Assembly: GCA_050015075.1 (NCBI GenBank) | Contig: JBEKCB010000048.1 | Location: forward strand, 1 to 23,390 | Direction: 5' to 3' | Length of the DNA: 23,390 bases | From: Candidatus Brocadiia bacterium | Lineage (GTDB): Bacteria > Planctomycetota > Brocadiia > CAIUPP01 | Shown here: positions 2,159-23,000 of the stretch, one piece after another | How the letters are laid out: each line of letters begins with the position of its first letter | Numbering within the stretch: the stretch's first letter is position 1 | Position numbers and translations under genes: made by a program | The notes under the pieces: model-generated | Database searches by the model: none | What the model was told of the DNA's origin: nothing | Seen by the model: the letters and a program-made list of their open reading frames with translations, nothing else

Positions 2159-2506
2159 ATGGCTGTGAACCTGACCGTCGACCCGCTCTTCACGCTGCTG
2201 CCGAAGGAGAGCATTCAGGTTCAGGATGCGCCCGCAGGCCCCTGGCGCACGGTGGACGCGTTCGTGGACCGGCTGGCGCCGGACGAAATGCTCGGCGCGA
2301 ATATGGGCGACCGGCCCCGATTCGAGGTCGAGTTTCGCAATGACGCGGTCCTCGGCGTTGCGGCGGGGTTCGACAGAGGGCAGACGACTTTCTGCGTGGC
2401 GCAGCGGTACGGCGGAACGCCCGATCCGACTGTGCCGGCAAGCCTGATGCACTGTTTCAAGATTCTCGGCCAGGACGAGGGCTGCATCCAGATGGAGTTG
2501 CGGTAA
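2159..2506 (+). CDS. Putative head-tail joining (head closure, gpFII-like) protein
   Basis: 115 aa, RBS GGAG, beta-rich, syntenic position between cement and gpZ-like genes. Confidence 0.55.
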   Translation: MAVNLTVDPLFTLLPKESIQVQDAPAGPWRTVDAFVDRLAPDEMLGANMGDRPRFEVEFRNDAVLGVAAGFDRGQTTFCVAQRYGGTPDPTVPASLMHCFKILGQDEGCIQMELR

Positions 2507-3231
2507 TGGTCGGCGCGGAAGTCCGAATCGAGTTCGACAAGAAGAAGCTGGCGGACCTCGTGGAACTGCTCGGCAAGTTCCCGAAGGCGCTGCCGTTAGT
2601 GCTCTCAAGAGCACTAAATCGGACGGCGCAGGCGATGCGTTCGCGCGTGAGCCATGACGCGGCCCGTGCCTTGCAGATTCCTTTGCGCCCGATCCGCTCT
2701 CGGATTCACACGTCGTGGGCGCGCGAGGACAAGCTCCGCGCAACGGTTTATATCGACGATGCCGGTTTCACCCTCTGGCTTTTCAAGCCCGTGCAGAACC
2801 GCATGGGCGTCGTGACCACGCGCGGGTTCGAGGGGACATTCCCCCACGCCTTCATCGCCGCGCCCTGGCATCGCTCCACCTGGAAGCACCGCAAAAACGG
2901 CCACAAGGTCATGTCGGACGTTTCGCCCGGCCCGGATTACGAGATGGTGCGCGCCGGCCAGGCGCACCCGAACGTTTACATCCGGAAGGGCAAGGAACGT
3001 TTCCCGCTGCTCCAGCAGAAAAGTCCCGGAGCGGTGGAGACCATTCAGAAGGCCGGCGGCTGGGAGGCGAAGTATGCCGAGGCGCTTCAGTATCTGGAAG
3101 ACCGCCTCGCCGCCGAGACGGAACGCGTCCTGGCCGGAGGCAAGTGGACGGCGGTCGCCTCGGGGCTGAACGAGTCCTGGGCCGAATGGACGTCCCGCAT
3201 GGGCGCTGAGTACGTCGGGGAGGCCGCATAA
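2506..3231 (+). CDS. Putative tail completion protein (lambda gpZ-like)
   Basis: Basic protein with RALNRTA...R...I..RI, AFIA and VYIRKGKERFPL motifs typical of gpZ-like proteins. TAATG coupling to the previous gene. Confidence 0.65.
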   Translation: MVGAEVRIEFDKKKLADLVELLGKFPKALPLVLSRALNRTAQAMRSRVSHDAARALQIPLRPIRSRIHTSWAREDKLRATVYIDDAGFTLWLFKPVQNRMGVVTTRGFEGTFPHAFIAAPWHRSTWKHRKNGHKVMSDVSPGPDYEMVRAGQAHPNVYIRKGKERFPLLQQKSPGAVETIQKAGGWEAKYAEALQYLEDRLAAETERVLAGGKWTAVASGLNESWAEWTSRMGAEYVGEAA

Positions 3232-3755
3232 TGGCACAGTCGCCTCCACCTTTAATTAAAGACGCCATCGGGTCGGCCATCGAGAGCTTGCTCCAGGCTC
3301 TCGTCACCAGCGGCGCCCTGAGCATGGTGCAGCGCCCGACCTCGGCGGGGATGCCGGCTAGCCCGCAGAACAAGTCCTGCTACATCCTTCAGGGCGACCT
3401 GCGACCGCCGGAGGATGACGGCATGGAGGCCGAGGGGCAGAACATCGTCGTGACCTCCATTCAGCCTTTTGAACTGAACCTGTTCGCAATCCAGAGCGAC
3501 ACGGCGACCACGCCGGTGGACTCCGTCCTCAACGCGATGGAGGCGGCGGTCGTCGCCGCAATCCTCGACGGCGAAGGCGGCAGTTATCTGCCGACCGCGC
3601 AACCTGCGCTGGCGAACGTCCTCGGCGCGGCGTGGTTCGACCCCAGCCCCATGTATTTCCGCGACCCGCGCAACGCCGCGATCTTCGGGCAGACGAAGAG
3701 GCTGCTCGTGGAGTTCCGGCACGTCCAGAACAACCTTTTCCTTCCGACTAGTTAG
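3231..3755 (+). CDS. Putative tail terminator (gpU-like)
   Basis: 174 aa acidic protein directly before the tail tube gene. TAATG coupling. Confidence 0.55.
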   Translation: MAQSPPPLIKDAIGSAIESLLQALVTSGALSMVQRPTSAGMPASPQNKSCYILQGDLRPPEDDGMEAEGQNIVVTSIQPFELNLFAIQSDTATTPVDSVLNAMEAAVVAAILDGEGGSYLPTAQPALANVLGAAWFDPSPMYFRDPRNAAIFGQTKRLLVEFRHVQNNLFLPTS

Positions 3756-3766
3756 GAGGCCGACCG

Positions 3767-4744
3767 ATGGCTATCTCGCCCGCAAGCCGCCCGCTCTCGA
3801 TGCTGCGCCGGTGCATCCAGGTGCAGCCGGAGACGACGCCCGGAACCGCGATGACGGTGGGGGCGGACCTCTGGACGATTCTCGCTTACGATTCCGTCAT
3901 CAAACCGGTCGTCGAGATGGAGGACGTGGAGAAGCCCGGGGCCGACCAGTACATGCCTTCCGAACTCGGCGCGCGTCTCGGCGAGCACACCTTCAAGCTG
4001 CGGCCGACCGCGCCTTCCGCCAATCCCGCCTGGGCGACGGCGATTCTTCCCGGCTTCGGCCTGGGATGGAACGGCAGCACCGCCTTCGTGCTTGACCAGA
4101 ACTTCCCCGAAACCGCCGCCAGCACCGTCAAGGCGCTGACGCACTTCGTGTGGGAGGACGGCATCCTGAAGTCCATTTACGGGGCTGCCGGCAATCTCCG
4201 CATCTCCGGCAAGGCGGGGAAGACGGCGATCTTCGACTGCACCTTCCGAGGCAAATGGGCGGCCCCGGTCGCCGCCGCGAAACCGACCATCACCTACCCG
4301 ACCGACAGCCCGTTGCGGTTCGTGAACGCCGCGATGACGCTCACGTTTCCCAGCAGCGACATCTACACGCCGAAGGTCTCCAACTTCACCCTGGAAATGA
4401 ACAACGAGCTGTACCCGGAGGAGGACGGCAGCTCCGGCGACGACACGGGAATCAACTACGTCCTCATCCCGAAGCGGCGCGTGAAACTCACCATTGACCC
4501 GCTCACGACGCTCCTGAGCGGCGGCAACGCCCACGACCTCTACGCGCACTGGCTGGAGCAGGAGCTTTGCTCCGTGGCCTTCTCGCTGAAGGACGCCGCA
4601 GGTAATTCGCTCGCCTTCGCCATGACCGGATGCCAGTACGACCTGCCCGCGCCGGGCGACCGCAACCGGCTGATGAAGGAGGACGTGACCCTCCTGAATC
4701 AGAACAACGACCTGACGCTGACCTTCACACCGCATAGCGCGTAA
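3767..4744 (+). CDS. Major tail tube protein
   Basis: RBS AGGAGG, 325 aa, ETTPG near the N-terminus, F.LEMNNEL motif. Precedes tail chaperones and tape measure; no sheath gene present. Confidence 0.75.
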   Translation: MAISPASRPLSMLRRCIQVQPETTPGTAMTVGADLWTILAYDSVIKPVVEMEDVEKPGADQYMPSELGARLGEHTFKLRPTAPSANPAWATAILPGFGLGWNGSTAFVLDQNFPETAASTVKALTHFVWEDGILKSIYGAAGNLRISGKAGKTAIFDCTFRGKWAAPVAAAKPTITYPTDSPLRFVNAAMTLTFPSSDIYTPKVSNFTLEMNNELYPEEDGSSGDDTGINYVLIPKRRVKLTIDPLTTLLSGGNAHDLYAHWLEQELCSVAFSLKDAAGNSLAFAMTGCQYDLPAPGDRNRLMKEDVTLLNQNNDLTLTFTPHSA

Positions 4745-5470: not shown

Positions 5471-7958
5471 CAAACAACTGGCGATTGCGCTTGTCGGCAC
5501 GGACGAAGCGTCCGGCGTCGTGGGCCAGTCCGCCCGCAAGATGGCCGCCGACCTTGAAGCCCTCCAGAAGCGCACCTTCGATGTCGGCCACGACGCCCGC
5601 GCCCGCGAAACGCGGGAGATGTCCAACCACTATGACACGCTCGCCGCCCAGTACAAGGCGCAACATGAACGCCTCGTGCAATACGAGGCGTCAGCGCGTG
5701 AAAAACTCGCGGGGCTGCGCCTCGAACGCGCGGGAAAACGGGCAACCCCGGAAATCGCGGCTCAGGATCGGGAGGTTAATCAGGCCCGTGCGCTGATCGC
5801 GCGCAACGAGGACGTGCAGGCCGAGGCCGCCAGGGCGAAGAAGGCCGAACAGGACGAGATGTCGAAACGTTATGAGGTTGCGGCGGCGGAAAAACGCGCC
5901 GCCGACCTCGCCGCCATCGAGCGCCGAATCTTCGACAGCACCCACAGCGCCCGCGAGCGCGAGCTACGCGACGTGCAGGAATGGAAGGCGCGCGAGCTGG
6001 CAGTCTACAAGAACGATGCCGAGATGCGCGCCAAGATCGAGGAAGCCGCCGGGCAGCAGACCTCCGAGATTCAGAAGCGATATTCTGCGGGAACCATTCA
6101 GCGATTCCTCGTCTCTGCCCGCGCGCTCAAAACAGCCCTCCTGGGCGCAGAGGTCTACGTCGCTTACGAAGTGGCGAAGGGGATCGCCGGCGCGATTGAA
6201 GCCGGGCCAGCGGAAACCGCCGCGCGCGCGAGCGGCCAGGCCGCAGAGATGATGAAGGGGCGGCTCGCCAGTCGTGCCGCAATCCAGGGAACCTACACCT
6301 GGATTCCGATTCTCGGCAGCATCGCCAAGGGTGTTCACGACTCCATCGCCGACACGAAACGCGAGACCGCGCTTGCGGAGCAGGGGGAGCGGACGCAATC
6401 CGAAATTCAGGAACTCTCCAGAGGCGTCCAACGAGCCGCACTGACCTCCGAACGATCCCGCGCGAACTTCCTCGGATACACGCCTGCCGAGATGGCCCGG
6501 CTGGACTATGAACAGGGCCGGCAGGAGCGCGCCGGGCGGCTCAGGGAAGCGCAGGAGGTCTACGGCCAGGCCAGCTCTGACTACGGGCGGTCGCGGGAAC
6601 TCCATCTCTCCAAGGATGAGCAGCAGGCATTCCTCGTCAAGGAGCAGCAGGCGAAGCGCTACGTTGACCAGCTTCGCCAGGTCAACGCGGCCGAGGATGA
6701 ATACGCCGGGGCGACCGCCAAACGAGCCGCGCAGATGGAGAAGGCGGGATTCTGGCGCGGGATCGAGCGGGAGACGCTCGGCGCGCAATTCACCGGCGGA
6801 CCCGGCTACGAGCAGCGCCAGGCCATCGAGCGGCGGATGCAGGGGCTGTCTCAGCAAGAGGAACTGGCGGCCCCCAAATTCGCCGGATTGGACGAGCGGA
6901 TCAAACAGGCCGGGGACAAGGAAGCGTGGCTGAAGGACTACCAGGACCGTATGCGCCGGCAGGGGAACCCGGGCTACACCCGGTATGACGCGGAAAAAGC
7001 CTGGAAGCGCGAATTCGGGGACGTGGATGAACTTCAGAAACAGCGCGCCGCCGTCATCGCGCGCCAGGGCGCTCAGACAACCGGGCTGACGACGCAGCAG
7101 CAGTACGAGCGCATGCAGTGGACCGCCGGTCTCGATCTGCGAGGCTTCGAGGCTCGGTTTGGCGGTCCGACGCAGGCAGAAGCGCGTGCACGCGAGCGCG
7201 AGGAGATGCGCGTCCGGCACGAGCAGGAAATGGGCGGTCCCGAAGGCAGCCCTACGCGGCTGAAGGAAGGGACCGACGAATATAAAAAGCTCAAAGCGGT
7301 ACAGAACGCCGAAGTTATAAACCGCGACAAAAAATACGACCGCGAGGACGAGGACCGCGAGCGCCGGCACCAGGTCGTCATGCGCGACGCGCTGGCCGGC
7401 GCGGCGTTCGACCGCGAAGCCATCCGCCGGCGGGAAATGGATCGCATCAAGGAATCCTACGCCGAGGACATCAAGAAGTTCGGCGAGACGGAGGAGATCA
7501 AGGCCGAGATCAAAGCGAAGCAGGACACGCTCGCGGTCCAGCAGGGTGAGCAGCGCAGGGAGGAACGCGCCGGGATCATCGAGCAGGCGCTGCGGACTCC
7601 CGGCGTCGGCGGGCAGTTCTCGGACGAGGCGGATCGCCTCGCGCTCGAGGAGACGGAGCGCAAGCGCCGCCAGGAACACCCTGAAATGTCCGCGCTCTTC
7701 GACAAGCAGGACGCGGCCGAACGCGCTGAAATGGCCGCGCAGCAGAACTGGAAGCCGAGCGAAGTGGCCAGCCGCAAAGGAGCATGGGACGCCGGTCGGC
7801 CATCCGGCTATGACCGCTTCATGCCGGGGCAGACGCCGGAAGCGAAGGCGCTCGGCGAGTACCTCCAGAAGAACTACGGCACGCTCGACGCGATCCACAA
7901 GCTGCTGACGGCCCTCGCCGGCAATCTCGGTGTCGCCCCTTCGGGAGGAGCCGGCTAA
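5463..7958 (+). CDS. Tail tape measure protein
   Basis: 831 aa, Ala/Glu/Arg/Gln-rich helical protein. N-terminus L.IAL.G.DEAS. Directly after the G/GT genes. Confidence 0.8.
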   Translation: MADKQLAIALVGTDEASGVVGQSARKMAADLEALQKRTFDVGHDARARETREMSNHYDTLAAQYKAQHERLVQYEASAREKLAGLRLERAGKRATPEIAAQDREVNQARALIARNEDVQAEAARAKKAEQDEMSKRYEVAAAEKRAADLAAIERRIFDSTHSARERELRDVQEWKARELAVYKNDAEMRAKIEEAAGQQTSEIQKRYSAGTIQRFLVSARALKTALLGAEVYVAYEVAKGIAGAIEAGPAETAARASGQAAEMMKGRLASRAAIQGTYTWIPILGSIAKGVHDSIADTKRETALAEQGERTQSEIQELSRGVQRAALTSERSRANFLGYTPAEMARLDYEQGRQERAGRLREAQEVYGQASSDYGRSRELHLSKDEQQAFLVKEQQAKRYVDQLRQVNAAEDEYAGATAKRAAQMEKAGFWRGIERETLGAQFTGGPGYEQRQAIERRMQGLSQQEELAAPKFAGLDERIKQAGDKEAWLKDYQDRMRRQGNPGYTRYDAEKAWKREFGDVDELQKQRAAVIARQGAQTTGLTTQQQYERMQWTAGLDLRGFEARFGGPTQAEARAREREEMRVRHEQEMGGPEGSPTRLKEGTDEYKKLKAVQNAEVINRDKKYDREDEDRERRHQVVMRDALAGAAFDREAIRRREMDRIKESYAEDIKKFGETEEIKAEIKAKQDTLAVQQGEQRREERAGIIEQALRTPGVGGQFSDEADRLALEETERKRRQEHPEMSALFDKQDAAERAEMAAQQNWKPSEVASRKGAWDAGRPSGYDRFMPGQTPEAKALGEYLQKNYGTLDAIHKLLTALAGNLGVAPSGGAG

Positions 7959-8875
7959 TGGCCGTCGTCAAAGTCACGGAGAGCTGGAAACAACTGGGCA
8001 GCAAGGTCGATGGCATCCCAGGGATCACTCCCATCTATGTGAACGCCACGAAAGTTTTCAGCGTGAAGTTCGACGTGGCCGCCGAGGGGAATTCGCTGGC
8101 CGCATTGACCGCGAACGACGGGACGACGCAGGTCCCTGGAAACGGGGCGTTCTATTCCTCCGGTTACAACTATCTGATCCTGCGGAACGTCCACGTCCTC
8201 GAACCTGTCGGGCCGACGCTGTTCCGCGTCGTCTGCGAGTATTCCGGTCTGGTCAACCCGTTTTCGCAGCAGCCCGTCCTGCGATACGCCGGCATGCGCC
8301 ACGCGGAGGAAGTCGGGCACGACGCGACCGGCAAACCCTATCGCAACACGATCGGGCAGCGTCTCACAGGGCACACGCGCGATTTCTACGACGTCATCTT
8401 CACGCTGACCCGCAACGAGGCGACGGACACCATCGTGGGCGGCGCATGGCGCGGCGTCGTGAACTCGGACACGGTGATGTGCGGCGATTACACGTGGGCC
8501 CCGAAGAAGGTGAAGATCGAGGACATTTCCGCGACGCGGGAGTACACGCCCGTCACGTCAGGAACTCTGACGTTCCAGAGCTGGTTCTATCCGGTCACGT
8601 ACACGCTGGCGGTTCGGACGCACGTCGTCACGATCAACGGCGGCAGCGCGACCGACATCGGCTGGCAGTACCTGGAGGCGAACCACGGCTCGCAGTACTG
8701 CGCCGTGTCCGGCGGCCCGACGAGGGACACCGTGAAGTACGGCCTCGGCCCCGACGTGCTCCTGAAGCAGGACGGCACGCTCGTCATGCCGACGGACCCC
8801 GACTCGTCGCTGTACTGGCTGCTCTTTGACGACTTCTTCCCGACGGCCTTCGCTCCGCTGGGGTTGAGCTTCTAA
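7958..8875 (+). CDS. Putative distal tail / hub protein
   Basis: 305 aa, beta-rich, TAATG-coupled to the tape measure; expected position for a tail-tip protein. Confidence 0.55.
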   Translation: MAVVKVTESWKQLGSKVDGIPGITPIYVNATKVFSVKFDVAAEGNSLAALTANDGTTQVPGNGAFYSSGYNYLILRNVHVLEPVGPTLFRVVCEYSGLVNPFSQQPVLRYAGMRHAEEVGHDATGKPYRNTIGQRLTGHTRDFYDVIFTLTRNEATDTIVGGAWRGVVNSDTVMCGDYTWAPKKVKIEDISATREYTPVTSGTLTFQSWFYPVTYTLAVRTHVVTINGGSATDIGWQYLEANHGSQYCAVSGGPTRDTVKYGLGPDVLLKQDGTLVMPTDPDSSLYWLLFDDFFPTAFAPLGLSF

Positions 8876-9489
8876 TGGAAAAACTCGTCATACCGACCGG
8901 GCGCGACTGGAACGACGTGCTGAAGCGGCTGGGCCGGCTCGACCGCAAGGGCGATCCGCGCCCGCGCCGCGAGCATCCCTGGACCTTCCCGGCGGGCCAG
9001 CCGATCCCGATCACGAACAACTTCTCGACGCTCGCGCCGGCGGGCGGCTTCGCCTGGCTCAACGGCAGCGCCGGTTCCGACGCCGATCATTACGGCGTCA
9101 TCCAGCCGACTTCCCCAGGCATCGCCCAGACGCTGGTCATCGTGGACTCGGACATCCCGCCTGGCGGCAACGGCCTCGGCTGGACGGCGGACGGCTGCGA
9201 GCATCCGTGCTATGACCCGATGGGGATCTTCGTGGTCAATCGGCGCTTCAGCGCGTCGGCGAACAGTTGGGCGCCCATGGCTAACCCGCTCGGGCCGGTC
9301 ACGGCAACCGCCGCGGCCGTCTCCGGCTTGGCAATGGGATTGTTCCATGGTCAGCGCGGGGACACGAAGATGGTTCGGACGGGGCCCGGCGCAACGGCCG
9401 GACTGCCCATCAAGGTCCTCATTCTCAGCGCCAACCACACTGTGACGCAGACGGCGCCAAACCAAGTCACGCTGACTTATGTGAGTTAG
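8875..9489 (+). CDS. Putative tail-tip protein
   Basis: 204 aa, TAATG-coupled, Gly/Pro/Thr-rich. Confidence 0.5.
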   Translation: MEKLVIPTGRDWNDVLKRLGRLDRKGDPRPRREHPWTFPAGQPIPITNNFSTLAPAGGFAWLNGSAGSDADHYGVIQPTSPGIAQTLVIVDSDIPPGGNGLGWTADGCEHPCYDPMGIFVVNRRFSASANSWAPMANPLGPVTATAAAVSGLAMGLFHGQRGDTKMVRTGPGATAGLPIKVLILSANHTVTQTAPNQVTLTYVS

Positions 9490-9492
9490 GTC

Positions 9493-9654
9493 ATGTTCCT
9501 GGTCATTGACTCGCTGGGAAACCTTTACACGGCGGACGAACTGATTCCGGGGACCGGCGAGGTCTTCACGGACATGGACGGCCTTCTGGATGCTTCGGCG
9601 TACACGACGACGGCCGATGGCGACGACACGCTGACCATGGGAGCGCAGACGTGA
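9493..9654 (+). CDS. 53-aa ORF missing from the ORF track; paralog of the segment preceding the Cys repeats of the next gene
   Basis: MFLVIDSLGNLYTADELIPGTGEVFTDMDGLLDASAYTTTADGDDTLTMGAQT*. Fills the gap exactly (3 nt after the previous stop; its TGA overlaps the next GTG). 23/53 ungapped identity to aa 262-314 of the 9651-11861 protein. Confidence 0.8.
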   Translation: MFLVIDSLGNLYTADELIPGTGEVFTDMDGLLDASAYTTTADGDDTLTMGAQT

Positions 9655-11861
9655 AATGGAAACGCTTCCTTTTCCTGTGGGTGATTCTTGTGCTTCTGGA
9701 CCTATTTAACTATTCCGCCGGGACTCTCCTTGCCAGCACAGGCAACTGGAACGTCGGCGCCCAGACCTCCGCGACGCCCGGGGGCTTTAATCCCTCCTTC
9801 GGCTGGCGGAAAACCGCATGCCCGGGCGTGAAGCCGGATGCTTATGGCGGAGTCCCTCTGAACTTCAACATAGCGACCTATGCCCGGAACATCGGGCATG
9901 CGAACCACAGCGTCCAAATCACCTTCGACGTCGGCGATTACACCTTCGTGGATTGGCCCGCCAACGAGAGCAAAGGCTTTCCATGCGGCACGCCGAGCTT
10001 CTTTGAAGTCGGTGTGATCCTGCGGTATGACCCGACCAGCGGAGATTACTACTTCGCAGAGGTCGTCGGAGCTGGCGGATGGTTCCAGTATCCGATCGTC
10101 GGCTGGACGACCGGCGTTGTGGCGATCGGCAAACGCGTCGGAGGCGTCACCACGATCCTGGCGGCGCAGAACATGGGCTTCGGTTCAGGCAAATTGGAAT
10201 GCTCGGTGTGCGGGCAAGAGCTGGTCGCCAGGGTGATGGGCGGCGACCTGACGACGCCTTGGGACTATGCCGAGAACCTGGAACTGGGCTATCCGGTCCT
10301 TGAGGTCAGTGATACGGACATTCCGAGCGGGACTTTCGGCGGCATGCTCGGCGAGGGCGACGGCAACACGGACGTGGGCGGCCCGATGTTTCCTCGGATC
10401 ACCTCCTGGATACAGCAGGCGGACGCCGACAAGACGATCCTGGTCGTGGACGCGAGTGGGAACGTTTACGCGGTGGACCGCATAAATGCCGGCCCGGGCG
10501 AGGTCTTTGTCGAGATGTTCGGCGCGCTCGATTTCGACCAGTACGCCACGGCGAATCAAGGCGACAGCGCGCTTCTCCTGGGGGCTTTCTCCGGCTGCGC
10601 GACCGGCTGCACGGCGGCCTGCACCGCCGGCTGTACGGCCAGTTGCACGGCGACCTGTACGTCCGGCTGCACCGCCAGTTGCACCACCGGCTGCGAGGGC
10701 AATTGCGAGGCGGCGTGCCAGACCGCGTGCGAAACCCAGGCTTGCCAGACGTCCTGCGAGACGCAGAATTGTCAGGCGGGCTGCACCGCGGGCTGCACGT
10801 TCTCCTGTACGGCCGGCTGCACTTCCGCGTGTACGGCCGGCTGCCAGATTCCCTGCGAATCCAGCGGGTGTCAGGGCGGCTGCACGGCGGGTTGCACGGC
10901 GGCGTGCACCGCGGGCTGTACGGCCTCCTGCACCGCCGGCTGCACGAACAGTTGCACGGCGGCCTGTACGAATTCCTGCACGAGCGGCTGCACGGCCACT
11001 TGCGCCGGCGGGTGCGTGAGCGGCTGTACGACGGGCTGCACTGCCGCCTGTACGGCCAGTTGCACGGCCGGTTGTACCTCCGAGTGTACGGATAGCTGCA
11101 CTGCCGAGTGCACGGCGGATTGTACTGCGGCCTGCACGGCAAGCTGCACCACGATCTGCGAGTCCGCCTGCGAAACCGGCTGCGAGACGCACACGTGCCA
11201 GACGGCGTGCGAAACCCAGGCGTGCCAGACGGCCTGCCAGACCCATACCTGCCAGACGGCGTGCGAAACCCAAGCGTGCCAAACGGCTTGCCAGACCCAT
11301 ACCTGCCAGACGGCGTGCGAAACCCAAGCGTGCCAAACGGCTTGCCAGACCCATACCTGCCAGACGGCCTGCGAGACCCAGACATGTCAGACGGCTTGCC
11401 AGACGCACACGTGCCAGACCGCCTGCGAAACTCAGGCGTGCCAGACGGCCTGCCAGACGCACACGTGCCAGACCGCTTGCGAGACCCAACCCTGCCAGAC
11501 GGCCTGCCAGACCCACACTTGCCAGACGGCCTGCGAAACCCAGTCGTGCCAGACGGCCTGCCAGACGCATCCGTGCCAGACGGCGTGCGAGACGGCGACC
11601 CAAATCATCTCGGCGGATTATTATTGCTGCAAATTACAGTTCTGGGGGGCAGCGGGACATCAGCCTGACAACACAACCTGTTCGGGATCGCCTTACGGCA
11701 CGACTTATTCATGTATGCAGGGCAGCAGCGTCATCGGTTTCGGTTCTGGGGCGTGCCACGTCACCGTAGCCGGCCAGAGTTGCAATATGGTCACGATTCT
11801 CGGTCCTGCATGGAGCACGTTGGCAGGTTGCCAGGGCGTGCCCTGCAATTCATCCACATAG
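9651..11861 (+). CDS. Putative tail fibre/structural protein with giant Cys-X3/X4 repeat (radical SAM target candidate)
   Basis: 736 aa: hydrophobic N-terminus, beta-rich globular domain (DLFN...NW), 53-aa leader-like segment, 79 periodic Cys (aa 316-646), Cys-containing C-terminal tip. Occupies the tail-fibre slot of the operon. Confidence 0.7.
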   Translation: MKWKRFLFLWVILVLLDLFNYSAGTLLASTGNWNVGAQTSATPGGFNPSFGWRKTACPGVKPDAYGGVPLNFNIATYARNIGHANHSVQITFDVGDYTFVDWPANESKGFPCGTPSFFEVGVILRYDPTSGDYYFAEVVGAGGWFQYPIVGWTTGVVAIGKRVGGVTTILAAQNMGFGSGKLECSVCGQELVARVMGGDLTTPWDYAENLELGYPVLEVSDTDIPSGTFGGMLGEGDGNTDVGGPMFPRITSWIQQADADKTILVVDASGNVYAVDRINAGPGEVFVEMFGALDFDQYATANQGDSALLLGAFSGCATGCTAACTAGCTASCTATCTSGCTASCTTGCEGNCEAACQTACETQACQTSCETQNCQAGCTAGCTFSCTAGCTSACTAGCQIPCESSGCQGGCTAGCTAACTAGCTASCTAGCTNSCTAACTNSCTSGCTATCAGGCVSGCTTGCTAACTASCTAGCTSECTDSCTAECTADCTAACTASCTTICESACETGCETHTCQTACETQACQTACQTHTCQTACETQACQTACQTHTCQTACETQACQTACQTHTCQTACETQTCQTACQTHTCQTACETQACQTACQTHTCQTACETQPCQTACQTHTCQTACETQSCQTACQTHPCQTACETATQIISADYYCCKLQFWGAAGHQPDNTTCSGSPYGTTYSCMQGSSVIGFGSGACHVTVAGQSCNMVTILGPAWSTLAGCQGVPCNSST
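10596..11594 (+). repeat. Coding tandem repeat: CTAx 4-mers, then 7 x 54-bp units (CQTA-CETQx-CQTA-CQTHT)
   Basis: Counted from the translation: 79 Cys-initiated units. 54-bp units run 11196-11573 with synonymous variation. Confidence 0.95.
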
Positions 11862-11869
11862 AGGGAAAG

Positions 11870-12292
11870 ATGGCTTGCGCGAACATCACGGCTGCGCGAA
11901 CGGCGCCGGACTCGGACCCGCCTTACACGGAGCATCAATGCTCACTCGTGGCGCAGTTCAGCGGCGATTCATTATTTCAGAACGGGTGGATCGCCGATGC
12001 GCCGTCAGCCGGCTGTTCCGGCTTAGATGACGGGGCGTCCATTTGCAGCGACGTCATCAATGCGTTTCTCAGCGTGCGCGTGAGCCTCATGTGGGAAAGG
12101 CCTGATGCGGCGTGCCCAACGTGCCTGAGCCTGCAGCAGGCCTTGGCGCTGATCGTGAGCCGGCAGGGGACGGCGGTCGCAGGACTGGTATTGGACGCGG
12201 CGGTGGGCGCGGGAATGCCGGCGGCGCAGGCGGAGGCGCTGGCGACGGCGAACGGAATCCCGCTGGACACAGATGACGGAGGTGGGACATGA
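11870..12292 (+). CDS. Hypothetical 140-aa protein (possible fibre chaperone or maturation accessory)
   Basis: ATG at 11870 with GAGGGA RBS right after the upstream stop. Acidic, contains CPTC. Its stop overlaps the rSAM start (ATGA). Confidence 0.65.
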   Translation: MACANITAARTAPDSDPPYTEHQCSLVAQFSGDSLFQNGWIADAPSAGCSGLDDGASICSDVINAFLSVRVSLMWERPDAACPTCLSLQQALALIVSRQGTAVAGLVLDAAVGAGMPAAQAEALATANGIPLDTDDGGGT

Positions 12293-13785
12293 GCACTCGA
12301 CGGCAGCGATGGGCGGCAATGGCTACGGGCCGGGCGGCCGTTCCCGTTCGCCGCGATCTGCGGAACTGTGCGCCGTGCCGAGGCAAGCTCCTGGCGACGA
12401 TGAAAGCGGAAATCGCTCAAACGGCTGCCCACACTCTCAAGCCGCTCAACGCGAAGCTGCAAAGCCGCCCCGACTTCATTCCCGCCGCGCCGAGGACCGA
12501 GGTCGTGAAACTGCCCGGGCACACGGTGCTCTACGACGTGCACAGCATGGCGGCCGTCGAGGTGGATGACAAGAGAATTGAACAGCCGGGCTGGGTGCAA
12601 AGCCTCCACGAGCACGGACTCAACTGCGCGGAGAAGCCGCAGTTCCGCTTCTTCCATCAGACGGAGTGCCTGTACCTGATCCTTGAGGCCACGCACGCCT
12701 GCAACCTCGCCTGCCAATACTGCTTCGTTCGGAACTACTACCCGGAACAGGGCGGGATGATGACGATGGACACGGCGCGCAAAGCCATTGATCTGCTCTC
12801 GCCCAAGCAGCCCGTGTCCGTCGGCTTCTTCGGCGGAGAGCCGCTGCTCAATTGGGACCTGATCGCCGGCGTCACGGCCTACGCCAAGGACCTCGCGGCG
12901 AAACGCGGCGTGGCCAGCCGGCTGCACATCACGACGAACGCGACGCTGCTCGACGAAGAGCGGATCCGATTCCTGGACGCGAACGGCTTCTCGCTGATCG
13001 TCAGCCTCGACGGCCCGGAGGAAATGCACAACCGAATGCGGCCGGGCAAGAGCGCCGCGCTGAACAGCCAGCAGGCCACGGTCGCCAATCTGCGGAAGTT
13101 CAAGGGACGCGGCCTGGCGCTCCGCACGACACTGCGCAGCACGTTCACCGGCGCGGGGATCGAGATGCTCCCGCGCATCGAATACCTCAACGCGCTGATT
13201 GAGGACGGCTGCGCGAGTCACATGAGCGTCGAGGCGTGCAGCCTGAACGAAACCGCCTGCCTGCGTCTGCCGGACGGTCACCCTCTGGCGATCACGCCGG
13301 CGCATTACGACGCGCTCGCGCAGGAGTATCACCTGGCTGCCAACTGGTATGTCGCCCAGGTGCGCGCCGGCAAGAGGCCGTCGCTGCAACAGTTCGCCTG
13401 GGCCCTGCGCCGCCTGCTCTACACGCAGCATTCCTGCACCGAGTGCGGCGCGGGTTGCGGATACCTGTCCGTGGACCCCGATGGCCATCTCTTCGCCTGC
13501 CATCGAGAGGGCAAGTCCGTCATCGGCCATCTGGACACCGGCGTGGACGAGGAGCTGCGGGCGAAGTGGAAGGACAACCGCTTCTATGCCCGGCCCGACT
13601 GCATCGTCTGCCCGATCAAGTACCTCTGCGGCGGGGGCTGCCGGATGAATTCCCTCGACCGCCACAACGACATCCGCCGGCCCGACGAGATGGACTGCTT
13701 CCTCAAGAGACGGATGTTCGAGGAAGCGCTCTGGATCATGTGCGAATTGGGGCCGGAGACATTGCGCGCCATTTTCCCAGGATGA
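12289..13785 (+). CDS. Radical SAM/SPASM peptide/protein maturase with N-terminal RRE-like region (SCIFF/ranthipeptide-maturase-like)
   Basis: CNLACQYC SAM motif, FFGGEPLLNW, TTNATLL, VSLDG; SPASM CGAG...V.PDG..F.CH and CIVCPIKYLCGGGC...C. GHTVLYDVHSMAAVEVDD resembles the RRE beta strands of SCIFF maturases such as CteB. Confidence 0.92.
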   Translation: MSTRRQRWAAMATGRAAVPVRRDLRNCAPCRGKLLATMKAEIAQTAAHTLKPLNAKLQSRPDFIPAAPRTEVVKLPGHTVLYDVHSMAAVEVDDKRIEQPGWVQSLHEHGLNCAEKPQFRFFHQTECLYLILEATHACNLACQYCFVRNYYPEQGGMMTMDTARKAIDLLSPKQPVSVGFFGGEPLLNWDLIAGVTAYAKDLAAKRGVASRLHITTNATLLDEERIRFLDANGFSLIVSLDGPEEMHNRMRPGKSAALNSQQATVANLRKFKGRGLALRTTLRSTFTGAGIEMLPRIEYLNALIEDGCASHMSVEACSLNETACLRLPDGHPLAITPAHYDALAQEYHLAANWYVAQVRAGKRPSLQQFAWALRRLLYTQHSCTECGAGCGYLSVDPDGHLFACHREGKSVIGHLDTGVDEELRAKWKDNRFYARPDCIVCPIKYLCGGGCRMNSLDRHNDIRRPDEMDCFLKRRMFEEALWIMCELGPETLRAIFPG

Positions 13786-13798
13786 AAAGGAACGCCAC

Positions 13799-14746
13799 AT
13801 GAATGTCCGCATCTTGCGAGAGGCTGGCGGGATCGGCGACATCCTCTGCACGCTGCCGGTCGCCCGCGCCGTCAAGGAGAAATGGCCCGGCGCGAAGCTG
13901 TATTACTTCGGCCTTCGGGATTACCGGGAGGTCCAGGAGCACTGTCCCGACGTGGACGTCCTCGTCCCCGTCGAGAGCCAGGGCCGCCGCGAGCGCGACA
14001 CCGACCCGGACCCGAAGCTTCACCCGTACCTGGCCGCTCCGGGCCTGCCGGAATTCGACATGACAATTGACCTCTGGTGCCCGGCTGCGCGCGAGGAACG
14101 AGCGAAGGCCCCGAACCTCGAGCACGGCCGGATCGAATCTTTCTGCATCGCCGCCGGTCTTACGCCGTCGGACTACGTGCCGCGTTACTTCGTGAGATAC
14201 GGTGAACAGGTCTGGGCGAAGGAATGGCTCGGCGCGGACGTGAAGCGGCCTGTCGTCGGCCTGGCGCCCTTCTGCACGAACAACATCCGGCGCGACTGGC
14301 CTCTGCCGCGATGGATTGAGTTGGCGACTGCACTGGAAGCTCGTGGGGCGACGGTCCTCGTCTTTCATACCTGGTTCAGCGCCGTGGCGGAAGTGCCGGG
14401 GCGGAAGGTCATCGGGGTTCCGATCTGGCAGCTGGGCGCGCTGACCGCCGAATGCGATGCCGTCGTCACGCCGGACTCCGGCCTCTTCCATTTCTCGGCC
14501 GCCGTCCACGCGCCGGCCATCGGTCTATTCGGCTCGACCCATGCCGACCAGACCGCCAAACACTATCCGCTGCACAGGACGATCTGGCCAAAGGGTGCCT
14601 CGCGTGACCACCAGTGTAGACCGCCGTGCCTGATGTTCGAGTGGCTCGGCTGCGACAACCAGTGTCGAACCCAGGGCTGTGAAATCCTCCAGAAGATCAC
14701 GGTCGAGGATGTTCTGAATGCAGTGAGAGAAAGGACACCACCGTGA
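13799..14746 (+). CDS. Glycosyltransferase family 9 (heptosyltransferase-like, GT-B) with C-terminal Cys cluster
   Basis: GGIGD..C.LP..RA.K.KWP, R.WP...W, VVTPDSG.FH.SAAV..P.IGLFG.T and CRPPC...C...C...C...ITVEDV motifs. Confidence 0.88.
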   Translation: MNVRILREAGGIGDILCTLPVARAVKEKWPGAKLYYFGLRDYREVQEHCPDVDVLVPVESQGRRERDTDPDPKLHPYLAAPGLPEFDMTIDLWCPAAREERAKAPNLEHGRIESFCIAAGLTPSDYVPRYFVRYGEQVWAKEWLGADVKRPVVGLAPFCTNNIRRDWPLPRWIELATALEARGATVLVFHTWFSAVAEVPGRKVIGVPIWQLGALTAECDAVVTPDSGLFHFSAAVHAPAIGLFGSTHADQTAKHYPLHRTIWPKGASRDHQCRPPCLMFEWLGCDNQCRTQGCEILQKITVEDVLNAVRERTPP

Positions 14747-15015
14747 GTAGAGGAAGCGAGGCGCGGGCGGCCTTGAAGGCCGAGTGCGAGGCGGCCATCG
14801 AGGACATCAAGCGCAACGGCCATCTGTCGAATTGCAAGGCGCATGACGCCCTTGCGCGCGGACAGATCGTGCTCCTGAGGTGCGAGATCGCCCGGCTGGA
14901 ATCCGACGGCAGGTCCGAAAGCCGGCACAGCCTGACTCGCATGTGGTCGGCGATCATCGCGCTGATTGTGACGGTTCTGGTCTCGTGGATTCAGTGGCAT
15001 TTTTGGGGCAAATGA
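14743..15015 (+). CDS. Small protein with C-terminal TM helix (holin-like or membrane protein)
   Basis: GTGA overlap, RBS AAAGGA, C-terminal MWSAIIALIVTVLVSWIQW. Confidence 0.55.
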   Translation: MSRGSEARAALKAECEAAIEDIKRNGHLSNCKAHDALARGQIVLLRCEIARLESDGRSESRHSLTRMWSAIIALIVTVLVSWIQWHFWGK

Positions 15016-15038
15016 TTTGCCCCGGAAGGGAGGGACGT

Positions 15039-15492
15039 ATGCGACGACTGTTTGCGTGCGTGGTGCTGGGCGTGGCGTTGGGCATGGTCGTAGGCTGCGC
15101 GGGCGCGCCGGTGCAGAAACCGACGCAGACCATCGCGCCGGACACGGCGACCGCCGCGAAGCTGGACAAGGTTTCGGCGGACGTGCTGGCTCTGACGCAG
15201 CAGAACCAGCAGGTGATCAACGCGGTGCAGAAGTCCGCCCAGGACGCCGACCTGTTCCGGACGCAGATCGGAGGTCAGGTGTCCAGCCTGAGCCAGTTTC
15301 AACAGCGGGTTGAGTCCTGGCTGGCAGAAGATGTTGGCGGTCATTGGCTGCTGGGCGTTCGCGTTCCTGCTTATCATCCTGGTGGGCAAGCTGGACCTGA
15401 ACTGGTGGATGGACGTGATCGTAACACTGTGCGTCCCGTTTCTGGTGCTCGGAGCGCCGTGGACGGTGCTCCATCAAAAGGCGCTGTTTTGA
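15039..15492 (+). CDS. Lipoprotein with coiled coil and C-terminal TM segments, split by a +1 frameshift near 15297 (spanin-like)
   Basis: MRRLFACVVLGVALGMVVG-C lipobox. The +1 frame opens at 15292 and encodes FNSGLSPGWQKMLAVIGCWAFAFLLIILVG...(two hydrophobic segments)...KALF*, stopping just before the next RBS. Confidence 0.5.
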
Positions 15493-15512
15493 AGAAGGGA
15501 GGTTTGACGCTC

Positions 15513-15713
15513 ATGGAGAAGCTGGAGTGGTTCGTCATCGGTGGGATCGTGTTCTCGCTTGGCCTGTCGGTGCTGTTCGGGTTCTGCCAGGCGGTCGGCG
15601 ATGCCATCGAGACGAAGGAGCACAACGTCATCGTGCTCATCGTCAACTGGGTCAAGGCGGCCTGGCAGCGGCTCTTCGGGAAGAAGACGGCCGCTCCCAC
15701 GAGCGGAAGCTAA
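15513..15713 (+). CDS. 66-aa membrane protein (holin-like)
   Basis: Own GGAGG RBS (15498-15502). MEKLEWFVIGGIVFSLGLSVLFGF TM segment, amphipathic second helix, basic tail. Confidence 0.6.
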   Translation: MEKLEWFVIGGIVFSLGLSVLFGFCQAVGDAIETKEHNVIVLIVNWVKAAWQRLFGKKTAAPTSGS

Positions 15714-15806: not shown

Positions 15807-16260
15807 AGGGGCGCGACGGTCTTCGTCTTTCACACGTGGTTTAGCGCTGTTGCAGACGTGCCGGGCCGCAAGGTCATCGGGGTTCCGATCTGGCAACTCA
15901 GCGCGCTGGTCGCCGAAAGCGACCTGATTGTGACGCCCGATTTCGGCCTATTCCATCTATCGGCAGCTGTCCACGTGCCGGCCATCGGCCTTTTCGGCTC
16001 GACTCACGCCGAGCACATTTTCAAGCACTACGCGCTTGCACAAGACCATCTGGCCGAAGGACGCGCCTCGCGCCTACAAGTGCAAGCCGCCATGCATGAT
16101 GTTCGAGTGGCTCGGATGCGACAACCAGTGTCGAACCCAGGGCTGCGAGATTCTCCAGAAGATCACGGTCGAGGAAGTTCTGAACGCAGTGCAGGGACAA
16201 CGGGACATGCAATCTATGCACCAACGCGGGACCTGGTCACCCCACGGTAGTGATAGATGA
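15807..16260 (+). pseudogene. 5'-truncated, frameshifted second copy of the GT9 C-terminal half
   Basis: RGATVFVFHTWFSAVADVPGRKVIGVPIWQL...CDNQCRTQGCEILQKITVE matches about 14342-14725. One extra base near 16035. DSG changed to DFG. Confidence 0.88.
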
Positions 16261-20035: not shown

Positions 20036-23000
20036 TTAATGTCCGTTCACCCAGGCGCGATACTGTTTCCGAGTCTCTGGATTGTTCATATCCTGTGTAA
20101 CGTTATTCTCCCGTTTGCAGTCGCAGTTGCTCAAGGATGTATCTGGAATCTGGCCGGATATTGACTTGCCATTGAGGGAAAAGCGATACCCGATAGACTG
20201 ACCTTTACTCGCACGATAGTAATATATCGTGGTCGGAACAACTTTGGTTTTATCGAAATGCGCACTCTCCGTTGGGTTACTGCCCACGAGGTACAGCTGG
20301 GTCCTTATTGAACCCGCGCATGCGGCTTGGGGGTTCGTGATAAGTTCTGTCGCAACGGTCCATTGCACGATAGACTTTGCTGATGCTTTTGCGAATGCTT
20401 CCTCGGCTATCTCTTTTGACGTCTCTACCCCGTACCCTATAACTATGACTGCGACGGCTACAACGACGACGCCAACTGCAAGCTCGATCAGAGTAAACGT
20501 CCCCTCAGGATCCGTATATGACAGCGGATTCGCTAGCGCGTAAATATAACCTCCTGCAAGACCGTCTTCAGGATCCTTCTGCATAAATCTGCCTATCCCG
20601 CTGTAGTATGTCCTGGCGCGAGTAATGAATAGCCTCTCATCCGGATCATCGTTCAGCGTCACCCACGCCGGTGCGCTGAAACTGAATCGGGTCCCTTCCG
20701 GCGGCGGCTGGTTGAGGAGTTTCTCGCCCCAGGCGTTGTACTCGAAGCTTCCGCTGATGGCGCCGGCGGCGTTGACGATCCGGTGGACGTTGCCAGGTTG
20801 ATCATAGACGGGGTACTGGTAGTAGGTCGTCGTCGCGGTGTTGATCTTCGCGGCGACCATGTCGCCGATCCCTGGGACCGGCGCGGAGCCTCGGGTGTAT
20901 TCCGCGCGGACTGTTCCCGTGATGCTGCGCTCGACCAGCTGGCAGAGGCCGTCCTGGTCGTACATGAAGTACGCCGGTCCGTTGCTGTCCACGAGCGCCC
21001 GCCTGCGGTTCAGGGCGTCGTAGTAGAAGTAGTTCGAGACGCCGTTGCGGAAGGTCACCCGCGCCATCAGGTTCACGCTGTTGTAGGCGAAGTACGTGGT
21101 TTGAGAGGCCGGCGCGGCGATTTTCGTGCAGTTGCCGTTGAGGTCGTAGCTGTAGTACGTCGCGCTGCCGCCCACCGGGAAGCTCTTCCTCAGCGCGTTC
21201 GCGGCATCATAAGTGAAGTAGCTCTGCTGGCCGAGCCGGTTCTGCCAGCGCCGGTTGCCCACCGCGTCGTACGACCAGGCGAAGGCGTAGACGTTCTGCA
21301 TGCCGGCATTATACCAGTTTTCCCCCGTCAAGCGGTCCGCGCCGTCGTAGGAATAATAGATCGTCTTCCCGCCCTCGCGTCCGATCTTCACGATCCGGCT
21401 CGCCGCGTCGTAGCCGTAGTTGAAGTACGTCAGCGCCGTCCCGCCGGGCAGAATGCTCTTCTGGCTGAGCAATCGGTTTGCGGCGTCGTAGCTGAAGTAT
21501 GCCGCTGCCCCATTGCCCAGAAGAGTTTTCGTCCGCCGCGAGGCCGCGTCATAGGCATAGTACGCCGTCCCGCTTCCGGGAATGCTGCCGGCGCCGCCGT
21601 AGAAGGTGATTCCCCAGGCTTGGTTGCCATAGCCTCCCGACCCGACCGCCGTGCTCGCGGCGGCGGTCATCCGGCCCAGTGCGTCATACCGGAAATACTG
21701 CGCCGGCTCCCCGTCGCCGATGCTGAGTTTCAGCCGATTCCCCACCGCGTCGTACGAGTGCGACACGCTGTTCCCGAGCAGGCGCATCTCCTGCGTGATC
21801 CTGTTCAGGGCGTCGTAGCTGAAGTACGTCCAGCCCCACGCGTCCTTCGCTCCGGTCAGGTTCGAGACCGCGTCGTACCTGAAGTAAGCGTACGTCGTGT
21901 CGGGGTAGCTGACCTTCGTTCGCCGGTTCAGGACGTCGTATCGGTAGTACGTGCTGTTCGCCAGGGCATCCCGATGCTTGAGCAGGTTCGACGCCGCATC
22001 GTACGCGAAGTACTCCGAATCCCCCAGCGCGTCGCGTGCCGCCGTCTGCCGGTTCAGGGCATCGTACCGGTAATACGTCGTGTTCGACAGCGCGTCGCAG
22101 ACCTTCACCCGGTTGCCGACGGAGTCGTAGCCGAAGGAGGCGCTCTCGTTCAGGGGATCGGTCGTCCCGGTCAGCCGGTTCAACGCGTCGTAGGCGAAGT
22201 AGCTCGTCTCCTGGAGCGGAGTCGTTACCTTCCTGCGATTGCCCGCAGCGTCGTAACCGAAGTATGCCGTGTTCCCGAGCGGATCCGCCACCGCCACCTG
22301 CCGGTTCAAAGCGTCATACTTGAAGTAGGAGGCCTGGTTGAGCGGGTCGGTTGCCGCCGTCCGGTTGCCGGCCGGGTCGTACCGGAAATAGGTCCGTCCG
22401 CCGAGCGCGTCCGCAACGCAGCGCCGGCGGTTCAATTGATCATAGGCGTAGTAGGTCGCATTGTTCAGCGCGTCCTGGATCGCCGTGGAGTTGCCGGCCA
22501 GGTCGTACTTGAAGTACGTCCGGTTCCCCAGCGGGTCAAACTGGCGCTTGACCCGGTTCAGCCCGTCGTACTCGAAGTAGCTCGCGTTCAATCGCGCGTC
22601 GCAGGACATCGTCCGGTTGCCGACCGCGTCGTACCGGAAATACGTGTGGTTGAGCAGCGCGTCGCGCTGCGCCCGGAATCGGTCCACGACGTCGTAGAAA
22701 TAATACGTCGGATTCCCCATCCCGTCCACCGACGCCGTCCGGTTCTTGTACGGATCGTAGCGGGATTGGCTCGCGGTGACCGGGTTCCCGGAGGCGTCGG
22801 ACACCGATTGCAGGGTCATCAGCCGCAGCCCGTTGTACTCGTAGTAGGTGGTCACGTTCCGAGGGTCCACGCTCGCCAGGAGGTCGCCCCGGCTCGTGTA
22901 GTCGTAATAGGTCGCGTTCGTCAAGGCATCCACGGACTTCGTCCGCCGGTTGAGCTGGTCGTAGCCGAAGTACGCCGTGAAGCCGGCGTAGCTTCCCGTC

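Follow-up and report, generated by a model that had tools for sequence, protein, structure and literature searches.

Cysteine arrays in a prophage-like tail module as candidate substrates of a radical SAM/SPASM enzyme of the thioether-forming branch

The 23,390-nucleotide stretch of DNA analysed here (the window) is an entire contig (JBEKCB010000048.1; G000:C48) from the 4.6-Mb draft genome of a Candidatus Brocadiia bacterium. It raises the question of what becomes of the cysteines in a 736-residue protein (9651-11861, + strand), which carries a long array of short cysteine-led units and is followed by a gene for a radical S-adenosylmethionine (SAM)/SPASM enzyme, a 498-residue open reading frame (ORF) at 12289-13785 (+ strand; likely start 12403). 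An initial annotation of the window had suggested that each cysteine could be linked to the threonine, glutamate or glutamine (T/E/Q) after the next cysteine, giving an overlapping ladder of thioethers like the bond made by the enzyme CteB. The register proposed there is supported by counts at the starts and ends of related arrays and at positions where a cysteine is missing, and the window itself fits it. Cys(i) and X(i+5) are thus paired statistically, and from sequence comparisons we propose that the radical SAM enzyme is the maturase of the array.

The array (10596-11594, + strand) is in frame with the 736-residue ORF and corresponds to its residues 316-648 (333 residues). It consists of 79 cysteine-led units, 60 of four residues and 18 of five, with the final unit truncated by the end of the region. 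A recount of the residue immediately after cysteine (Cys+1) returned the tally of the initial annotation unchanged, namely T/E/Q in 76 of 79 units (T33, Q27, E16), the exceptions being A in two and V in one. The same three residues make up 61 of the 176 remaining non-cysteine positions of the array, and 33 of its 36 distinct unit types have one of them at +1. The window bears out only in part the further claim of freer variation at the other positions: 4-mers have an entropy of 1.53 bits at +1, 2.07 at +2 and 2.20 at +3, but in the 5-mers +2 (T in 17 of 18) is tighter than +1. It does hold across 77 other array proteins, in which the entropy is 1.76 bits at +1 as against 3.36 at +2 and 3.17 at +3. 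Within the window +2 is almost equally constrained, and +1 stands out only through comparison with relatives.

Both the list of units and a 54-nt period bear out the two sub-grammars that had been distinguished, one of CTAx 4-mers and one of alternating 4- and 5-mers. A T-rich sub-array (residues 316-502; 10596-11156, + strand) is formed mainly by C-T-[A/S/T]-x 4-mers interrupted by two E/Q islands; it shows tandem periods of 12, 24, 36 and 48 nt and contains all three exceptions, CATG (the first unit), CAGG and CVSG. The E/Q sub-array that follows (residues 503-648; 11157-11594, + strand) is built from an 18-residue super-repeat, CQTA-CETQx-CQTA-CQTHT, in which the repeat finder TRF detects a period of 54 nt with 7.6 copies and 87% matches (11180-11590). 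The same peptide unit occurs in several synonymous DNA versions (e.g. 16 CQTA copies in 7 versions) and the G+C content at third codon positions is 0.83 in the reading frame of the array, indicating that the repeat has been selected at the level of the protein.

To which cysteine the residue at +1 belongs was read from 115 array proteins, comprising 98 database matches (the near-identical protein P0001 being left out), the window protein and 16 proteins from the loci described below. The 78 proteins in which at least 80% of the Cys+1 positions are T/E/Q were kept, and unique sequence contexts were counted. A true start was defined by the absence of cysteine in the 12 preceding residues together with a first unit in register, and an array end by the absence of cysteine in the next six residues. 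The bias at Cys+1, which the initial annotation had asked to be checked in homologous repeats, is present in them, with T/E/Q at 3629 of 3888 interior positions. At true starts, however, the first Cys+1 is T/E/Q in only 18 of 53 cases, and the position three residues before the first cysteine in 8 of 53. The opposite end of the array behaves differently: the last Cys+1 is T/E/Q in 94 of 99 cases, and so is the last Cys+5 in 86 of 99, though no cysteine precedes that position. Gaps from which a cysteine is missing tell the same story. With a denoting the cysteine before the gap and b the one after it, gaps of 7 have T/E/Q at a+5 in 44 of 52 and at b+1 in 4 of 52; gaps of 8 have it at a+1 in 64 of 70, at a+5 in 63 of 70 and at b+1 in 21 of 70; and gaps of 10 have it at a+5 in 12 of 13 and at b+1 in 3 of 13. 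In normal units b+1 is T/E/Q in 2588 of 2724 (four residues) and 272 of 285 (five residues). Taken together, the missing-cysteine, start and end counts imply that T/E/Q depends on the cysteine five residues upstream and not on the adjacent one; a simple C-[TEQ] dipeptide motif is excluded by the same counts.

The pattern was replicated in 24 array ORFs that were found through the enzyme alone and were absent from the first set: long gaps have T/E/Q at a+5 in 21 of 29 as against 8 of 29 at b+1, short gaps have it at b+1 in 599 of 724, the last Cys+5 is T/E/Q in 15 of 17, and strict starts have it in 5 of 10. Read in this manner, n cysteines face n acceptor-like positions that are displaced by one unit toward the C-terminus. 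The window conforms to the rules seen at the ends, in that the first unit is CATG, with a relaxed first acceptor slot, and the array closes with C646-E-T-A-T-Q651, placing Q at +5. Where a unit has five residues, the partner is found at i+6 instead. The evidence for the register comes from arrays of the E/Q type, and its extension to the T-rich half of the window array would follow from the first unit and from analogy.

Sequence profile analysis of the downstream enzyme recovered the Radical_SAM family of Pfam (PF04055, E 9.9e-17). In an alignment of 8 sequences the CX3CX2C cluster motif (C100, C104 and C107) is invariant, as are C348, G361, C366, C400, C403, C409, C413 and C432, which align with the SPASM domain of CteB. 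SPASM domains are typified by a seven-cysteine pattern, C-x12-G-x4-C ... C-x2-C-x5-C-x3-C ... C. The best NCBIfam scores are those of the SCIFF maturase (TIGR03974; 185.8 bits), nif11 (184.7 bits), QhpD (TIGR03906; 166.2 bits) and PapB (NF047865; 164.2 bits) families, and the enzyme lies below the curated cut-offs of 425, 453 and 340 bits for the SCIFF maturase, QhpD and PapB, respectively. The family of CXXX-repeat maturases (TIGR04115) scores 55.7 bits against a cut-off of 350, and the CrpC family (TIGR04463, cut-off 525) falls outside the 25 best of 73 families, i.e. below 55.7 bits; indeed, no named family accepts the enzyme at its score threshold. Among proteins of solved structure the best match is CteB (PDB 5WGG; E 7.6e-43, 150 bits over 385 residues), and an enzyme of the anSME type scores 49 bits, a third of this value. 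A RiPP recognition element at the N-terminus is a further trait of SCIFF maturases; in the window enzyme about 90 residues precede the radical SAM core, and the phmmer alignment starts at CteB residue 66. The best family scores, together with CteB as the best solved relative, place the enzyme by sequence in the thioether-forming branch, outside its named families. In an enzyme tree based on a quick search, with a midpoint root and SH-aLRT support, it belongs to an 18-row clade (support 99), 16 rows of which lie beside cysteine arrays; 12 SCIFF maturases form a separate clade, and array-adjacent enzymes are found in at least three clades.

The association between arrays and radical SAM enzymes recurs well beyond the window. 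A search of 61 genomes (the present genome, G000, and 60 relatives) gave three matches, in G000, G002 and G039. The last of these, with 8 in-frame TGA stops and an E-value of 3e-5, was taken as spurious; G002 has a different, larger tail protein with a C[EQ]xx array and, immediately downstream, a radical SAM enzyme of 40% identity. The closest genome match found by an enzyme search, L022 (81% identity), encodes a 1196-residue protein that is mostly array, preceded by genes homologous to 7958-9654 of the window. A scan of viral contigs with the single enzyme sequence gave no match, but a scan with the enzyme alignment retrieved 80 loci, one of which (L044) was already in the set; among the 79 new ones scanned (L090-L168), 31 have an array of at least 14 units on the same strand, corresponding to 29 distinct ORFs. 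These include distant enzymes (24-29% identity) with the array downstream instead. The 21 loci with close relatives of the enzyme comprise 16 with regular arrays, two with irregular cysteine-rich stretches in large upstream proteins (L100 and L105), two that are cut upstream and one with none. The converse search, with an enzyme-blind DNA pattern of three C-[E/Q]-T-x units, recovered 51 viral loci, 16 of which hold E/Q arrays when one duplicate is excluded; in 13 of these 16 a radical SAM enzyme lies beside the array, and in the other three the contig stops 0 to 4.3 kb downstream. Among 11 array-adjacent enzymes that were scanned, the best families are PapB, SCIFF and QhpD, with nif11 best in one.

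Arrays of other kinds and sizes also bear on this linkage. L102 has a T-type array (T in 98 of 136 units) with a radical SAM enzyme beside it, and L049 an array of about 190 units. A second contig of the same genome (G000:C25, locus L249) encodes a J-like 992-residue protein (6107-9082, - strand) with a short array of five cysteines and four complete units, after which comes a linker rich in Pro and Thr; 3.7 kb downstream of this protein lies a paralogous radical SAM enzyme of 34% identity (973-2715, - strand), with glycosyltransferase-like ORFs in between. The contig thus holds a second prophage tail module of the genome. A second class of C-x3 arrays, with S/T/G/K at Cys+1, accounts for 13 of the 99 similarity matches (P0017, P0036, P0040, P0043, P0046, P0047, P0065, P0074, P0075, P0077, P0083, P0093 and P0094). 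Viral contigs yielded few arrays of the G or V type (L056, L083 and L089), and no radical SAM enzyme was found near these; in L164 and L165 an S/G-type array lies 6 kb from a weakly related one. As a separate observation, in P0073 about 14 C-T-x-x units are fused to the C-terminus of a radical SAM/SPASM enzyme whose best match is a thioether-former family, so that enzyme and substrate-like repeat occur within one chain.

The closest known system is that of the SCIFF peptides (CteA/CteB, Tte1186a/Tte1186), and the initial analogy to CteB proves apt. Not only is CteB the best solved relative and TIGR03974 the best family of the window enzyme, but the SCIFF precursors beside 72 of 79 SCIFF-maturase loci have the form C-x2-C-QTS-C-QSA-C-KTS-C-T, i.e. 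a four-unit C-x3 core with Q, Q, K and T after cysteine, which contains C-K-T-S-C-T. In its sequence, the SCIFF core is a four-unit version of the phage array grammar. According to two reviews (PMC8326336, PMC8172795), the one mapped link of CteB, Cys32-Thr37, was established in vitro, which corresponds to the donor-first i to i+5 register. The link to the gamma carbon of threonine comes from a co-expression study, which one review reads as Cys32-Thr34, calling the discrepancy unresolved (PMC8326336), and which the second, in the portion available, cites for the threonine gamma carbon without a residue number (PMC8172795). The statement from which the proposal had started, that CteB joins Cys32 to the gamma carbon of Thr37 in C-K-T-S-C-T, merges the results of these two studies. 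The differences from SCIFF are also clear: the window enzyme reaches 185.8 bits where the cut-off is 425 and lies outside the clade of the 12 SCIFF maturases in the quick tree; its candidate substrate is a phage-borne protein of 736 residues with 79 units rather than a peptide of about 45 residues with six cysteines; and an enzyme of glycosyltransferase family 9 (GT9) is attached to the window system.

Freyrasin, the product of PapB acting on PapA, likewise involves one SPASM enzyme and several tandem links from cysteine to acidic residues, and several phage enzymes beside arrays have PapB as their top-scoring family. The links of freyrasin follow a C-x3-D motif. They are six separate Cys-to-Asp links (PMC8326336), whereas in the arrays D is avoided and the i+5 register overlaps. 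In the CXXX-repeat peptide system (TIGR04115) the radical SAM maturase targets a CXXX repeat according to the NCBIfam description, but the window enzyme scores only 55.7 bits with this family, and no paper on a CXXX-repeat radical SAM system was found in the literature. Precedents for enzymes of this class acting on whole proteins are provided by QhpD/QhpC and CrpC/CrpA (PMC13692751). QhpD, the third-best family of the window enzyme (166.2 bits), acts on a protein subunit; it differs in that its target, a small subunit of a redox enzyme, has no repeat array and receives three irregularly spaced links. In Methanococcus voltae the SPASM enzyme CrpC puts non-alpha thioethers (ranthionines) on a large cysteine-repeat protein, CrpA, but it belongs to TIGR04463, and the repeat, of 17 residues with C-x-x-Q/D motifs, is archaeal and cellular; the word 'phage' is absent from the paper that describes it (Dieter et al. 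2026, PMC13692751).

The acceptor residues T, E and Q all have an sp3 gamma carbon. D occupies just 16 of the 3888 interior Cys+1 positions and N is outside the ten commonest residues listed there. QhpC has a Cys-Glu link from sulfur to the gamma carbon, along with Cys-Asp links to the beta carbon (PMC13692751). Given the relatives of the enzyme, the near-absence of D and N, and the published gamma-carbon links of Thr in SCIFF and Glu in QhpC, analogy points towards a gamma-carbon thioether in the array.

With respect to the virion, the array gene lies after genes for capsid, cement, neck and minor tail proteins and for an 831-residue protein, all on the same strand, and related arrays on viral contigs are found in proteins with PF25691, a baseplate-wedge fibre-network domain (E 6.7e-27), or with a weak Phage-tail_3 match. 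This gene position and the proteins in which other arrays occur suggest, with moderate confidence, that the 736-residue protein is a distal tail or fibre protein with the array as its shaft.

These observations are brought together in a reading that we consider reasonably probable, namely that the array is the shaft of a prophage fibre which the radical SAM enzyme staples into an intra-chain thioether ladder; what we infer beyond the pairing itself is the covalent thioether, the gamma carbon, the single chain and the virion fibre. The 333-residue array would be the shaft of the distal-tail or fibre protein and the substrate of the enzyme encoded 430 bp downstream. The enzyme would act on the T/E/Q after the next cysteine by abstracting a side-chain hydrogen, and the carbon concerned, most likely gamma, would be joined to the sulfur of the cysteine five residues upstream, or six in 5-residue units. 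As each unit would provide both a donor and an acceptor, successive six-residue rings would overlap by two residues, turning the entire array into an uninterrupted ladder with a maximum of about 76 thioether links. Thioethers being redox-independent, the ladder could stiffen the fibre in the reducing cytoplasm at virion assembly, and the GT9 enzyme may attach sugars to the same protein. The generalization of this reading, by which in many uncultured phages a part of the fibre would be a poly-thioether ladder, a SCIFF-like core expanded from 4 to about 190 units, stapled by radical SAM enzymes and decorated by GT9 enzymes, is put forward more tentatively, at a little short of an even chance.

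Several observations weigh against the reading of the array as a stapled fibre shaft. Covariation denotes functional pairing and by itself is no proof of a covalent bond. The sequences are related, so that the counts are not independent events, and the counting of unique contexts lowers the redundancy only. A plain two-by-two count is not clean, with T/E/Q in 279 of 472 positions that have a cysteine at -5 but none at -1 (81 of 237 in the enzyme-anchored set) and in 240 of 478 that have one at -1 but none at -5 (120 of 231). This arises because units of three and six residues shift the partner, for which reason the gap and end tests were used instead, and the shift means that the rule is the residue after the next cysteine, or i+5 if that cysteine is missing, and not a strict i+5. 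Units of three residues are less regular (b+1 is T/E/Q in 68 of 95), two adjacent interior units of the window (CAGG and CVSG) have no acceptor, and the gap test on 20 T-type proteins is uninformative, their long gaps lying in unrelated cysteine-rich domains, while the T-type forms half of the window array. As to the enzyme, a member of its clade in L099 has no cysteine-rich ORF within 8 kb upstream. In the two closest relatives, L022 (5095-6441) and L081 (3458-4603), a second, small radical SAM enzyme that is absent from the window is encoded after the array gene and ahead of the SPASM enzyme. As to the chemistry, only one of the possible links of the SCIFF peptide has been seen experimentally according to one review (PMC8326336). 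Finally, the array protein has no recognizable tail domain and, unusually for a fibre, is predicted to start with a hydrophobic helix.

Among the alternatives, the one nearest to the intra-chain ladder retains the same i/i+5 thioethers between cysteine and T/E/Q but places them between the chains of a trimeric fibre, producing a welded bundle. Phage fibres are usually trimers, and covariation cannot separate intra-chain from inter-chain partners; yet a spacing that is fixed at 5, and becomes 6 where units have five residues, is most easily understood as a distance along one chain, and the characterised relatives SCIFF, freyrasin, NxxcA and QhpC all form intramolecular rings (PMC8326336, PMC13692751), so that we regard such a bundle as unlikely. 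Slightly less probable again is that Cys(i) interacts non-covalently with residue i+5, as a structural or a metal-binding unit, with the radical SAM enzyme carrying out some other chemistry or acting on another substrate. The pairing statistics alone are no sign of a covalent bond, enzymes of the anSME type are also detectable relatives, and a metal-thiolate or a disulfide fibre had been named as an alternative at the outset. However, there is no metal-ligand chemistry common to T, E and Q, and D hardly occurs at Cys+1; the CteB score is three times that of anSME and the best families are all thioether formers; and the G- or V-type arrays, few as they are, lack the enzyme.

The remaining two explanations fare worse. 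An acceptor-first register, as in the NxxC ranthipeptides, would link T/E/Q to the cysteine three residues downstream in small separate rings. The string [T/E/Q]-x-x-C is indeed present in every 4-residue unit and NxxcA links Cys23 to Asn20 (PMC8326336), but under such a register T/E/Q should be conserved at position -3 from the first cysteine and the last Cys+1 should be relaxed, the opposite of the 8 of 53 and 94 of 99 observed, and T/E/Q before a missing cysteine is kept in 64 of 70; we therefore hold it to be very improbable. Just as little credence is given to a disulfide-bonded or low-complexity fibre segment that the enzyme adjoins by chance: cysteine-rich repeats without T/E/Q at +1 do exist, as the S/T/G/K class attests, but the pairing of array and enzyme recurs in at least three enzyme clades and in both gene orders, and the same genome has the tail protein with the mini-array 3.7 kb upstream of a paralogous enzyme.

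The known targets of thioether stapling by radical SAM enzymes are short peptides and two proteins of cellular origin, namely QhpC and CrpA. In the window this enzyme class is tied to a virion-type protein, a linkage that is repeated across dozens of phage contigs. No paper linking phage tail fibres to radical SAM thioethers was found in a search that left subscription journals and bioRxiv supplements outside its range; the novelty lies in the overlapping ladder of donors and acceptors and its scale, in its occurrence in a structural protein of a phage, and in a GT9 partner that is conserved. The displacement of n acceptors by one unit relative to n donors is an exact and cheap prediction for mass spectrometry and mutagenesis. 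The SCIFF peptides, the function of which is unsettled, gain a structural relative, and if the stapled-shaft reading is true they could be read as minimal versions of the same fold. It would then also represent a new route to chemically robust phage fibres under reducing, anoxic conditions, the use of natural-product chemistry as structural material in virions, and a genetically encoded cross-linked polymer that is programmable through its repeats.

Outside the array, the 736-residue protein is poor in relatives and has no match of its own in Pfam, NCBIfam or PHROG. Its N-terminal 315 residues (9651-10595, + strand) comprise a hydrophobic N-terminal helix, an orphan domain and a pre-array segment (10437-10595). 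A word-based search with this domain gave only the near-identical P0001, and an exhaustive HMMER search of 1.84 billion representatives gave three matches (a near-identical one, a fragment and one of 35% identity), no informative cluster being found in the ESM Atlas; judged from its sequence the domain is an orphan. A single-sequence AF2 model of residues 1-375 is poor (pLDDT 40), and outside the array only the helix at 3-29 is confident. The C-terminal 88 residues (11595-11861, + strand) start with A-T-Q, in which Q651 is at +5 from the last cysteine of the array, and continue as a cysteine-rich knob with 12 cysteines for which no homologue was found in 21 related loci. P0001 is a near-identical 727-residue variant that is without one 9-residue (27-nt) CQTA-CQTHT pair and has 9 substitutions, the sole change at any Cys+1 site being Q to E; this comparison indicates that the copy number of the array is polymorphic between assemblies. 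A precomputed PF27846 label is carried by 54 of the 99 similarity matches of the array, but not by P0001, and no paper on PF27846 was found in the literature.

The left two thirds of the window, on the + strand, reads from its gene content as a prophage-like structural module. Family or profile matches identify a capsid gene at 7-1227, and it is followed by genes for a cement protein (1277-2098), a neck/tail-completion protein (2506-3231) and a minor tail protein (3767-4744), and then by the 831-residue ORF and ORFs of 305, 204 and 53 residues that lead up to the array gene, all on the + strand. The 204-residue protein has no similarity to the N-terminal domain of the array protein. The 53-residue ORF (9493..9654, + strand) is a paralogue of residues 263-315 of the array protein (43% identity, E 1.3e-7), has a counterpart immediately 5' of the array gene in L022 (1544-1714; E 5.4e-10), and gave no match in the protein-family libraries scanned. 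Its likeness to the pre-array segment recalls the N-terminal 47 residues common to CrpA and CrpB (PMC13692751), and it could possibly be a leader-like or assembly element.

In the spacer of about 430 bp that separates the SPASM enzyme gene from the array gene (11862-12288) no remnant of the small radical SAM enzyme was found, the tblastn matches being only to the array in other frames and to the SPASM enzyme; in L022 and L081 this small enzyme shows weak PapB and QhpD matches. The ORF at 11870-12289 has no counterpart among the 21 related loci. The heptosyltransferase-like GT9 enzyme (13799-14746, + strand; PF01075, E 1.7e-16) follows the SPASM enzyme directly. A GT9 homologue lies 3' of the radical SAM gene in 15 of the 21 related loci and all six homologues scanned match PF01075, indicating that the conserved module consists of the array protein, the radical SAM enzyme and the GT9 enzyme; given this adjacency, the array protein may also be glycosylated. 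Beyond it, a 277-residue ORF (14880-15713, + strand) gave no family above cut-off and has a match only in L022 among the related loci (E 2.2e-174). A 130-residue ORF (15858-16250, + strand), 1.1 kb past the GT9 gene, matches profile positions 176-217 of PF01075 (E 2.2e-9) and resembles the C-terminal part of GT9 enzymes, matching the GT9 ORFs of 11 of the 21 related loci; it is possibly a GT9 fragment.

To the right of the GT9 and 277-residue region, the opposite strand encodes a GT2 enzyme, a helix-turn-helix regulator and, past the regulator, an RHS/YD-repeat protein (20036-23305, - strand), which lies at the contig's right-hand end and contains an RHS-associated core domain. The G+C content of about 0.65 falls to 0.56-0.61 past 16 kb, and the RHS region is probably host DNA flanking the prophage.

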